DNA of 64,000 nucleotides from an uncultured Actinomycetes bacterium (GTDB taxonomy: Bacteria > Actinomycetota > Thermoleophilia > UBA2241): positions 64,001 to 128,000 of the forward strand of contig CAVPVX010000004.1 in assembly GCA_963709345.1 (NCBI GenBank). Direction: 5' to 3'. Below, piece by piece: positions 39,805-55,619 of this stretch. The position numbers were made by a program, and so were the translations under genes. Each line of letters starts with the position of its first letter. Positions within the stretch are counted from its first letter, which is position 1. The notes beneath the pieces were generated by a model that had not been told where the DNA came from, did not search any database, and saw only the letters and a list, made by a program, of their open reading frames with translations.

Positions 39805-39852
39805 TGGTAGCGCATACAGGATTCGAACCCGTGGTACCGCCGTGAGAAGGCG
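39805..39852 (-). repeat. att-like copy of the tRNA-Glu 3' portion (distal island boundary)
   Basis: 45/48 identical to 55544-55591. Confidence 0.92.
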
Positions 39853-39936
39853 CCGGGATGGCCTCCCCAGATCGGCACACAGAGGCCCGGCCCACACGAA
39901 ACCGATCGCGTACCGGGGATTTGGGCTGAAGATGGA

Positions 39937-41374
39937 TTGCAGACGGACCGTGCGGCGGCCCTCAGCACGGTCTGCGGTACTGGCGGGAGCGGCTGATCGG
40001 CGCCATCCTCCTCACCGGAGTCGCTCTCGGCACCGTCGTCTACCCACCAAGCATCTGGCTCGCCGTTCGGGAGCATCTGCCCGCGGTCGTGTTCGCGGAC
40101 ACACTGATTCTCGGCACCGGGATCTCCCTGCTCGTCCTTCGGCGCATCCCTTACTGGATCCGGGCGTCGGCCGTCGTGGCGATCTGCTATCTGCTCGGCT
40201 TCGTGCTCTTTCTGGCGCTGGGGCCCGACGGCGCGGGAATCGTCTGGCTGTTCACCGCGCCCGTTCTTGCCGGCGTTCTCGGCGGGACGAGAGCCGCCTG
40301 CGCCGCGCTGGCGCTGAACGGAGCGACGATCGTCGCCTTCTGCCTGCTGATCCTCAGCAAAGGGGATTCCATCGCAGCGCTCGCCGACCAGCCGGTGGAG
40401 AAGTGGATCGTCATCGGGCTGAACTTCATGCTGCTCAACTCGCTCGTCGCCATTTGCGTGGCACTTCCGCTCCGAGGGCTTCAACGATCGCTCCAGGAGG
40501 TGCAGAGCGCCCGCACTTCGTTGGAGCGCAATCACGAGCAGCTCGCGGCCACGCACGCCGAGCTTCGCACCGCTGATTCAAAACGCAGCAAGGCCGAGAA
40601 CGAGCTCAAGGAGCACTACGGACAACTCGAGGATCTCGTCGAGAAGCGCACGGCGGAGCTCGCCTCGACCAACCAGGAGCTCGAATCGTTCGCCTACTCG
40701 GTCTCCCACGACCTGCGGGCGCCGCTGCGCGCCCTCGACGGCTTCAGCCAGGTGCTGATCGAGGACTACTCCGAGGTGCTCGGCGAGGAGGGCCGCGCCC
40801 ACCTCGAGCGCATCCGCGCCGCCGACGCCCGCATGGGCACCCTGATCGACGCCCTGCTCGAGCTGTCGCGCCTCAGCCGCGGCGAGCTGAAACGAGAGAC
40901 GCTCGACCTCTCGCGCGATGGCCCACGAGCTCGGGCGCCGAGCTTGCGGAGGCCGAGCCCGGAGCGCCACGTCGAGCTGGTCGTCGCCGAGGGGCTCGAG
41001 GCCAGGGCCGACCGCGAACTCGTCGCGCGCCCTGCTCACCAACCTGCTCGGCAACGCCTGGAAGTTCACCGGCGCCCACGAGACGGCGCGCGATCGAGGT
41101 CGGCGCCGCCGCGCTCGACGGCGAGCGCGCCTTCTTCGTGCGCGACGACGGCGCCGGCTTCGACATGGCCTACGCCGAGAAGCTCTTCGGCGCCTTCCAG
41201 CGCCTGCACGGCGCGGGCGAGTTCGAGGGCCTCGGCATCGGCCTCGCCACCGTGCAGCGCGTCGTGCGTCGGCATGGCGGACGGGTGTGGGCCGAAGGCG
41301 CGGTGGAGCAGGGCGCGACGTTCTTCTTCACGTTGCCGGCGGCTGCCGGCGAGGACTCACCGGCGGGTCTGTGA
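39937..41374 (+). pseudogene. Membrane sensor histidine kinase with several frameshifts
   Basis: TM sensor from [31 protein letters not shown] and DDGAGFD lie in other frames (shifts near 39960, 40918, 41030, 41090); start uncertain. Confidence 0.8.
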
Positions 41375-41441
41375 TTTCCGTCGCGTCAGATGATCTGAGC
41401 TGGGCAGGCGGTCAGACGCAGAGGGCGATCAGACGTGGCCG
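41366..41441. repeat. Duplicated kinase 3' junction, copy 1 (possible IS256-like end)
   Basis: GGGTCTGTGA..GTCGCGTCAGATGATCTGAGCTGGGCA also present at 44886. Confidence 0.75.
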
Positions 41442-41640
41442 GGTTCGTTTGGGCAGTTGAACCGGGTTGGTAGGTCATGAACCGCTCGCCATGTAACTGC
41501 TGCTTGCGCGCGTCGTGTATACCAGTAGACCTCGTCGGCGTACGGTCGCTCAGGCCCTGGCGCCGGCGCCGGTGGTGGTAGAAGTCGAAGTGGGCGGCCA
41601 GCTCCGTGCGTGCCCCGGTCAAGATGAGGGCGGTTCGAGG
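41432..41640 (-). mobile_element. IS3-family transposase C-terminal remnant with terminal IR
   Basis: ARTELAAHFDFYHHRRRRQGLSDRTP/DEVYW followed by ACTGCCCAAACGAACCCGGCCACGTCT. Confidence 0.7.
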
Positions 41641-41925
41641 TTGGCACAGCAAGGCTGCAAGCCTTCGCCGGAGGAGTGCACCAGCGAGTGTTTCAGCAGC
41701 TTGCCACTCGCCAAGGTGGCCGCTCAAACCGGCAGGCAGGTCGTCCCGCGAAGCGGGATGCTGTCCATTGGCCGACGACAGCGGGCAGGCCGGCAGCGTT
41801 CGGGGCAGCGATGCCGAAGCCGTTCCCGATGCTCTGGCGCGCTTCGTGCAATGGGCATAGAGTGCTGATGCGTCCGCGGCACTCAGTGGGGGCCAATCGA
41901 GGCGCGGACCGCTGGGAGGAGCGCC

Positions 41926-55010: not shown

Positions 55011-55059
55011 GACCTCGAACGGCGGGATGAGCACAGCACGCGGGGGACGGACGACCGCG

Positions 55060-55300
55060 ACCTGTGGCGCCCCGGATGGGAACAGGGACGACTGGTGGGC
55101 GCGCTCGCCGCGTTTGTTCTCGACGACGGATCTGGGGAGCCCGCTGGGCGTCCAGCCAGACGAGCGGGGCCGCGGGATCACAGGAGCACTTCTCCGCCAC
55201 GTCTTCGGCGGTCTCGCCGCTGACGGGGTCCGCTCGGTGCTGATGGTCGAAGACGCTGAGAGCCTCACAGGAGCCACCGCGCTCTACGGGACTTCGCAAT
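55060..55300 (+). pseudogene. GNAT acetyltransferase C-terminal fragment
   Basis: LGVQPDERGRGITGALL (motif A) ..DAESLTGATALY. Confidence 0.55.
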
Positions 55301-55421
55301 GGGCGTGGCGAGATGCTTCGACCTGCGCGAGCGAAAGGCAGGTGATGCGTCCCGACCGCGCCGACGATCCATACGCGGACCAAGCAGGGTCCCAGATGTA
55401 CCAACCGCAGACTGCGTCGCA

Positions 55422-55495
55422 GCGTCCCAGGCGTCCCGGCGTCCCAGGCGTCCCGGTTGCACTTTCGGTTGCATTTCGGTTGCAGAAGGGTTGTA
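55422..55495. repeat. Short tandem repeats beside tRNA-Glu (arm-type-site-like)
   Basis: Four GCGTCCC, then GGTTGCA at 55455, 55467, 55478 and GGTTGTA at 55489. Confidence 0.75.
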
Positions 55496-55543
55496 GCCGA
55501 CCGGTCTGGCGGAGGGGTAACGAGGCGATTTCGCTGAGATGGC

Positions 55544-55619
55544 TGGTAGCGCATACGGGATTCGAACCCGTGTTACCGCCGTGAGAGGGCGGCGTCCTAG
55601 GCCCCTAGACGAATGCGCC
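55544..55619 (-). tRNA. tRNA-Glu(CTC)
   Basis: GGCGCATTCGTCTAGGGGCCTAGGACGCCGCCCTCTCACGGCGGTAACACGGGTTCGAATCCCGTATGCGCTACCA. Confidence 0.96.

Follow-up and report, generated by a model that had tools for sequence, protein, structure and literature searches.

An attachment site of the lambda type (attP) consists of a core and of arm-type sites, which are bound by the N-terminal domain of the integrase and by Xis. The formation and accretion of cis-mobilizable elements (CIMEs) have been described, and the passages of that account which deal with tandem arrays call the partners "generally decayed elements" (PMC5704250). Tycheposon islands of Prochlorococcus are presented, in the relevant part of their description, as growing beside tRNA genes and as containing scattered partial tRNAs and fragmented integrases (bioRxiv 10.1101/2020.12.28.424599). 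The locus described here is a 15.8-kb interval that ends at a tRNA-Glu(CTC) gene. It lies in a stretch of 64,000 nucleotides (the window) of contig CAVPVX010000004.1 from an uncultured Actinomycetes bacterium of the class Thermoleophilia (assembly GCA_963709345.1). The genome, G000 in the numbering used below, is metagenome-assembled, 3.1 Mb in size and 98% complete. A first-pass annotation of the window had seen in the interval a tandem array of integrase-less cassettes. The interval is probably a fossil tandem array of elements that integrated into tRNA-Glu, comparable to CIMEs, from which the integrase gene (int) has been lost. This is a known way of island growth, found here in a new and poorly studied lineage.

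Structure of the array

The 3' half of the functional tRNA-Glu gene recurs three times in the interval, always in the orientation of the gene (Table 1). Two of the copies cover tRNA positions 29-76, as delimited by blastn-short. The third is degenerate, with a 25-nt core at 45017-45041 that is 96% identical to the gene (E = 4e-5 in a blastn-short search against the 3.1-Mb genome). All three part from tRNA-Glu at position 28, where they have G for C, and read ...GGCGCC before the anticodon loop. Start to start, the copies and the gene are spaced by 5201, 7816 and 2722 nt. In these respects the first-pass annotation was accurate, having described repeats of the last 48 nt of tRNA-Glu in one orientation, units of about 5.2, 7.8 and 2.7 kb and a common point of divergence. 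The repeat at 52822 exceeds 48 nt, as the 66 nt past its tRNA 3' end (52748-52813) are 73% identical to 55471-55536. When a 33-nt piece of the tRNA-Glu 3' half was searched with up to three mismatches, it was found in the window at 39810, 52827 and 55549, all on the minus strand, and 0 of 100 shuffled sequences gave any match. The structure is real and beyond chance. Outside the array the assembly contains no further copy of the tRNA-Glu core, the sole other match being the tRNA-Glu(TTC) gene itself, and an Rfam scan of 39000-56500 revealed no RNA family besides tRNA-Gln and tRNA-Glu. At 101 nt from tRNA-Gln, the outermost copy aligns with the 3' half of tRNA-Glu in the empty sites of relatives and stands at the place of the tRNA 3' end in these sites. 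It is therefore the original 3' end of tRNA-Glu, displaced by insertions.

The locus in related genomes

The locus was compared with 40 relatives by means of a 19.9-kb query that spans it, and the tRNAs were then located in 12 stretches. The distance between tRNA-Gln and tRNA-Glu is 77 bp in G007 and 160 bp in G006, both empty sites, and ranges from 1.3 to 49 kb in eight others (G003, ~1.3 kb; G001, ~3.0 kb; G008, ~7.9 kb; G014, ~12 kb; G017, ~33 kb; G012, ~36 kb; G010, ~43 kb; G002, ~49 kb). The flanks are syntenic with those of relatives on single contigs and show the same border genes, and the cargo of the interval is mostly different between genomes. Empty sites, variable lengths and mostly unshared cargo together mark the tRNA-Gln/tRNA-Glu interval as an insertion hot spot of the classical kind, with the target in the 3' half of a tRNA gene.

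Partial tRNA-Glu copies are present in 22 of 54 genomes of the genus, counted among the matches listed. The array of G065 has up to 12 such copies, and G060 has seven more on a second contig (C4:633430-772865). G060:C5 and G065:C8 (L104 and L106) are 98.3% identical over 1.7 kb of chromosomal flank, of which tRNA-Glu is a part. Inside the arrays only the junction modules (85-91%) and an integrase module of ~2 kb (84-86%) are in common; near-identical flanks with different cargo imply fast turnover. In G024:C3 (L032), an IS110-family (DEDD) transposase at 8395-9381 adjoins a partial tRNA-Glu copy and its arm.

Iteron arms and junction modules

The cores are accompanied by arms with two to four repeats of GGTTGCAG, set at a period of 11 bp (iterons). 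The motif has four matches in the window at up to three mismatches, compared with 0.31 expected; all four lie in the array and on the plus strand. The arm at 52870-53016 is 80-86% identical in G017, G012, G019 and G024, and the arm at 55441-55543 is conserved at 84-89% beside tRNA-Glu in G058, G020, G005, G043, G014, G012, G010 and G017. Junction modules of ~270 nt are conserved across four relatives. The arms of the window are eroded, with half an iteron at 53006-53016, no arm beside 45041 and degenerate motifs. The half iteron and the following TCAGTGTCAGTCTGAGTC (52998-53033) are not a random truncation, as nearly the same string stands beside a tRNA-Ile copy near G000:C1 ~184880.

In G060 and G065 every partial tRNA-Glu copy has the same motif on both sides, at ~62 nt past the tRNA 3' end and at ~115 nt on the opposite side. 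The two motifs are oriented alike and have further conserved flanks. In the solitary motifs of G065 the left flank is that of one arm and the right flank that of the other, which fits deletion of the core, possibly by recombination between the two direct repeats. The genome of the window has the motif in other places too: on contig C1 beside tRNA-Ile(GAT) and tRNA-Ala(CGC), and on contig C4 upstream of tRNA-Ala(TGC). It occurs near several tRNAs and is therefore common to elements with different tRNA targets. By analogy with lambda, the iterons are putative arm sites for the N-terminal domain of an integrase and/or for an excisionase. A possible role of the motif as a promoter or upstream element of tRNA genes, as its place upstream of tRNA-Ala(TGC) might indicate, was not adopted, since the motif flanks partial copies on both sides in G060 and G065.

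Recombinases in the window, its genome and related arrays

A six-frame search of the whole genome with PF00589 gave 11 matches, none of them on the contig of the window. PF00239 had no match in the genome, and PF01548 (IS110 transposase) had one weak match on another contig and none in the interval. Neither PF12728 (HTH_17, excisionase) nor PF01580 (FtsK-like) matched in the interval. Scans of its open frames with Pfam and PHROGs detected no recombinase, and no conjugation or mobilisation genes were found in the array. In a tblastn search of 39601-55700 with 34 frames picked automatically at integrase loci, some of which are not integrases, the best value was E = 0.016 apart from the rows of one kinase frame; these only stronger rows came from the L009 query, which is really a histidine-kinase frame. 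All recombinase searches (PF00589, PF00239, PF01548, tblastn, Pfam and PHROGs) thus bear out the first-pass statement that no unit has a recognisable recombinase frame.

The 98% complete assembly also contains no full-length close relative of the integrases found in related arrays. Its only relatives of these integrases are a fragment of 192 aa on C1 (PF00589, 76 bits) with Phe where the conserved Tyr is expected, a match on C11 with 47% identity and an integrase beside tRNA-Arg with 31%. There is no attP-like copy of the core outside the array, for which reason an attP-bearing episome in the assembly was rejected.

The C1 fragment served as the query for integrases in the genus. One unit of G060 carries a full integrase of 384 aa between junctions with the same arms; located at L104:13275-14429, it scores 92 bits with PF00589, contains a SAM-like domain and matches Arm-DNA-bind_4 weakly, at E = 0.0017, which is below the curated cut-off. 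In G065 there is a copy with 88% identity, along with fragments. Three integrase fragments are present in the interval of G019. The first is a frame of 222 aa, 66% identical to the C1 fragment. The second starts at AGVHPKVV, 35 nt past an iteron, and the third comprises the last 24 codons, 14 nt past the iteron of the counterpart to the window arm at 52870-53016. The same relic of 24 C-terminal codons stands beside the counterpart of the 52822 junction in G024. Since the counterpart arm continues into an integrase relic in G019 and G024, at least the element of unit 3 belongs to a family that carried an integrase beside this arm. The possibility that int was split by an attP within its sequence, as in the Sulfolobus spindle-shaped viruses (SSV), was rejected, as the relics lie at least ~190 nt from the core (~175 nt from core to iteron, then 14-35) and are not fused to it. 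A pattern scan of genome contigs for an arm together with tRNA-Glu gave nine loci, and in these 8-kb loci integrase matches were found only on the G019 contig, with no intact integrase-bearing element. Among the six fully covered units of G060 and G065, one has a full integrase, one a relic only and four no match (tblastn, E ≤ 1e-8). The first-pass annotation had associated integrase remnants in each unit with ordinary decayed islands; such relics occur in the counterparts of relatives and in none of the window's units, and they bear this view out only in part.

Origin of the array

The interval has the direct repeats of a tRNA 3' end, the empty and variable sites in relatives, the att cores retained with the mobility genes gone and the cognate integrase in relatives that characterise CIMEs and tandem arrays. 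It would be accounted for by three or more site-specific integrations, one after another, into the tRNA-Glu 3' half. The attP of each element would have had tRNA positions 29-76 as its core and, on either side, arms with 11-bp-phased GGTTGCAG iterons, which presumably served as arm sites of a heterobivalent tyrosine integrase, of its excisionase or of both. Each integration would rebuild the tRNA and shift the earlier junction away from the gene, so that the unit next to tRNA-Glu would be the newest. Later deletion of the integrase and of any excision genes, with partial decay of the cargo, would leave integrase-less, att-flanked units similar to CIMEs. The serial islands that each lost int, one of two alternatives named by the first-pass annotation, fit the data best in view of the empty sites, the integrases in homologous arrays and the relics of G019 and G024.

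Several points weigh against this explanation. The four G060/G065 units without an integrase match include both tRNA-proximal ones, the newest in a sequential model, and the intervals of G017, G012, G014, G008 and G010, 8-43 kb in length, had no PF00589 match. No integrase relic is found in any of the window's three units, and their former int is argued from relatives. The wholly different cargo of G060 and G065 between 98.3% identical flanks means that int is lost fast or that units arrive without it. The "empty" site of G007 (L023, G007:C146, ~1050-1080) has the iteron-like GGTTGCAGAAGGACTGCAG 6 nt from the 3' end of tRNA-Glu, which the simple model does not predict; the ancestral spacer of the window (39780-39803) aligns with it in degenerate form. 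Finally, the genomes are metagenome-assembled and some of the structure could be misassembled. Among public sequencing runs, only two contain 6-7% of the sampled words.

It is unlikely that the units never carried int and form a living cassette store, moved in trans by an integrase from another unit or from a visiting element. Such movement would agree with the lack of int in most units of the window and of relatives, with the conserved arms of integrase-less units, including tRNA-proximal ones, and with the quick turnover of cargo between G060 and G065 despite their flanks, but the arms of the window are eroded, unit 3 is pure debris, a close and full-length relative of the array integrases is missing from the genome, and integrase relics stand beside the counterpart junction in G019 and G024. 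The non-autonomous elements mobilised in trans that the first-pass annotation proposed are possible at the level of the genus, given the four of six G060/G065 units without an integrase match. In the present genome they are unlikely now, because a cognate full-length integrase is lacking and the arms are partly eroded.

It is improbable that the tRNA-Glu locus of the genus is a cassette store of mostly integrase-less units, in which a few array-resident, arm-binding integrases capture, shuffle and delete units in trans. The units would be bounded by an att module of ~300-400 nt (iteron, tRNA half, iteron), and the window would be a silenced example. The iterons would be recurrent breakpoints, because the solitary iterons resemble arm recombinants and because integrase fragments of different length start 14-35 nt past the iteron in two independent units of G019.

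An integron-like accretion system, as suggested by the first-pass annotation, would require a resident recombinase that captures promoterless cassettes at a dedicated primary site. The ordered array in one orientation, with unrelated cargo, repeated boundary sites and up to 12 sites in G065, has the appearance of such a platform. However, PF00589 detected no resident recombinase beside the array in the window or in five relatives, the boundaries are tRNA halves with long arms and not attC-type hairpin sites, the units are multi-gene on both strands, and the integrases, where present, lie inside units and not at a fixed position. The repeats are att cores of the ordinary tRNA-derived type, accompanied by arms. 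An integron-like platform is largely refuted by the absence of intI and attI and is very improbable. If no element had integrated, the copies would have come from misassembly of the bin or from a duplication or an unequal crossing-over of the tRNA 3' half within the locus. Such an origin would suit a metagenome-assembled genome and short copies but is hardly credible in view of the syntenic flanks with the same border genes on single contigs in relatives, the ~270-nt junction modules conserved in four of them, the integrases in homologous arrays and the boundary of all copies at tRNA position 28/29, as an att core predicts.

Gene content and decay of the units

The positions of the att sites, arms, units and genes are given in Table 1. 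Units carry two to six genes on both strands. The frame of the first kinase of unit 1 opens right after a stop codon at 39927, at the iteron motif, and has no start codon before 40089; its HATPase part is in a different frame according to tblastn. The gene is therefore regarded as a truncated and frameshifted pseudogene. Three histidine-kinase paralogues have ~70 nt in common immediately after their stop codons (41394-41441, 44896-44966 and G000:C1:184753-184822) and are 87-89% identical in their C-terminal coding sequence, and two of the three stand just before a partial tRNA copy. Such histidine kinases seem to be frequent island cargo.

The PadR-hydrolase frame of unit 2 may represent two genes or a recent fusion. 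About 1 kb of its hydrolase part (45096-46162) is found again in G019:C10 and G017:C41, where it is 86% identical and has neither common neighbours nor a tRNA or an iteron. As only this part recurs, there is no evidence that the cargo of unit 2 moves as a whole.

Unit 3, 2.7 kb long, consists of pseudogene debris. Its translation is Arg/Pro/Ala-rich nonsense, apart from protein-like fragments at ~53806-54250 and ~54300-54600 in different frames and a weak relic of a GNAT C-terminus at ~55140-55290 (Pfam E = 0.017, the sole match at E up to 1). It has no match in PHROGs. In tblastn searches of the intervals of relatives and of its own genome, the interior gave nothing beyond the att region, and the fragment 53806-54300 had no match at E ≤ 0.001 in a large protein collection, in which candidates were only 90-289 residues long.

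Table 1. Features of the tRNA-Gln/tRNA-Glu interval (window coordinates; GC3, GC content at third codon positions)
Feature	Position	Strand	Basis	Remarks
tRNA-Gln(CTG)	39628..39703	+	ARAGORN, Rfam	Left edge of the hot spot; conserved
Outermost copy of tRNA-Glu positions 29-76	39805..39852	-		45/48, 93.75%; distal att site
Unit 1	39853-45003		GC3, Pfam	MASE11/HisKA kinase and 989-aa multi-PAS kinase
Degenerate iteron motif	39924..39942	+	Motif scan	3 mismatches; inner arm of outermost copy
MASE11/HisKA histidine kinase pseudogene	39930..41393	+	Pfam, frame reading, tblastn	Unit 1
Multi-PAS histidine kinase	41926..44895	+	Pfam, GC3 0.86	Intact, 989 aa; unit 1
Degenerate tRNA-Glu 3' copy	45004..45041	-	Repeat search	38 nt; junction of units 1 and 2
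Unit 2	45042-52821		GC3, Pfam	PadR-hydrolase frame, second hydrolase, nitroreductase-family, isochorismatase-family and PCC-domain genes
PadR and alpha/beta-hydrolase open frame	45065..46753	-	Pfam	Unit 2
Alpha/beta hydrolase	46828..48528	+	Pfam	Unit 2
Nitroreductase-family protein	48476..49624	+	Pfam	Unit 2
Isochorismatase-family protein	50709..51224	+	Pfam	Unit 2
PCC-domain protein	51856..52389	-	Pfam	Unit 2
Unit 2 arm, tRNA-3' side	52748..52821	+		Exact iteron pair GGTTGCAGAATGGTTGCAG at 52755-52773
Copy of tRNA-Glu positions 29-76	52822..52869	-	blastn-short	46/48, 95.8%; junction of units 2 and 3
Unit 3	52870-55543		GC3, Pfam	No convincing gene
Unit 3 arm, other side of core	52870..53016	+		Half iteron 53006-53016 at end
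Unit 3 interior, decayed	53017..55440		GC3 profile, translations, Pfam	No intact gene
Unit 3 arm adjoining tRNA 3' end	55441..55543	+		Four 11-bp-phased iterons at 55456-55496
tRNA-Glu(CTC), functional	55544..55619	-	ARAGORN, Rfam 58 bits	Integration target; proximal att site

Other islands in the genome

A second island of the same family, with the same iteron arms, is located outside the window at G000:C1:184969-206194 (L034, L035). It extends from a 38-nt copy of the 3' end of tRNA-Ile(GAT) (C1:184969-185006) to the gene itself (C1:206118-206194) and contains two tRNA-Ala(CGC) genes, a gene of the metallo-beta-lactamase fold, an S9 peptidase-like gene and the 192-aa integrase fragment. At G000:C4:161093-171275, likewise outside the window, tRNA-Ala(TGC) is accompanied by a copy of its 5' half 8.8 kb upstream and a copy of its 3' half 1.2 kb downstream. 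A tRNA-Arg(CCT) island is found at C7:757674-774903 together with C5; 5'-half copies are present on C7, C5 and C4, with integrases beside them. In the window, ARAGORN called a 98-nt tRNA-Val(GAC) at 31284-31381 on the minus strand, inside a high-GC3 frame (30592-32322), which is probably a false call.

Significance

The locus illustrates the build-up of flexible gene content in an uncultured, soil- and groundwater-associated actinobacterial lineage, in which one tRNA-Glu landing pad varies within the genus from an empty state to arrays with as many as 12 partial tRNA copies. With their conserved iterons, the arms offer a simple tag by which such islands and their limits can be found in related metagenome-assembled genomes. 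For the genome of the window, the fossil array is mainly of value for annotation, as it explains a low-GC3 patch, pseudogenes and accessory sensor and hydrolase genes. Of some interest are the arm module with its iterons, which recurs at different tRNA targets, and the G060 and G065 arrays, which are very large and for the most part without integrase.

Comparison with known systems

The array resembles integrons in being an ordered series of integrase-less units with unrelated cargo. It differs from them in that intI, attI, the cassette promoter (Pc) and attC are absent, the sites are tRNA-derived and the units are multi-gene on both strands. Of the genes of actinomycete integrative and conjugative elements (AICEs), int (PF00589), xis (PF12728) and FtsK-like (PF01580) had no match in the interval, the Rep families being outside the search. 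As to integrative mobile elements exploiting Xer (IMEX), the unit boundaries are tRNA-derived and not dif-like by inspection, no dif search having been made.

As in a lambda-type attP, the core is identical to the target and has short direct repeats, set in helical phase, to either side, and the integrase of a relative has a weak match to an arm-binding domain. In contrast to that system, the same iteron is found at the att sites of tRNA-Glu, tRNA-Ile and tRNA-Ala, and an iteron-like motif is present in an empty site. Tycheposon islands, as the relevant part of their description has it, also grow by repeated integration beside a tRNA, newer elements pushing older ones inward, and most of the island DNA belongs to no intact element. 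No hallmark module such as replication genes turned up in the present locus, in which no search was aimed at them, and the G060 integrase is an ordinary arm-binding tyrosine integrase of the phage type.

The closest likeness is to CIMEs and to the tandem accretion of integrative elements at the 3' ends of tRNA and other genes, as described for ICESt1 and its CIME in Streptococcus thermophilus. In the passages of that account on such arrays (PMC5704250), att-flanked elements are likewise without integration and transfer genes and most tandem partners are decayed. The window array differs in having no conjugation or mobilisation genes, so that there is no sign of an origin from an integrative and conjugative element (ICE) or an integrative and mobilizable element (IME). 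It also belongs to another lineage, that of Thermoleophilia-like metagenome-assembled genomes, the distinctive 11-bp iteron is common to elements with different tRNA targets, and the relatives of the window genome have arrays of up to 12 sites.

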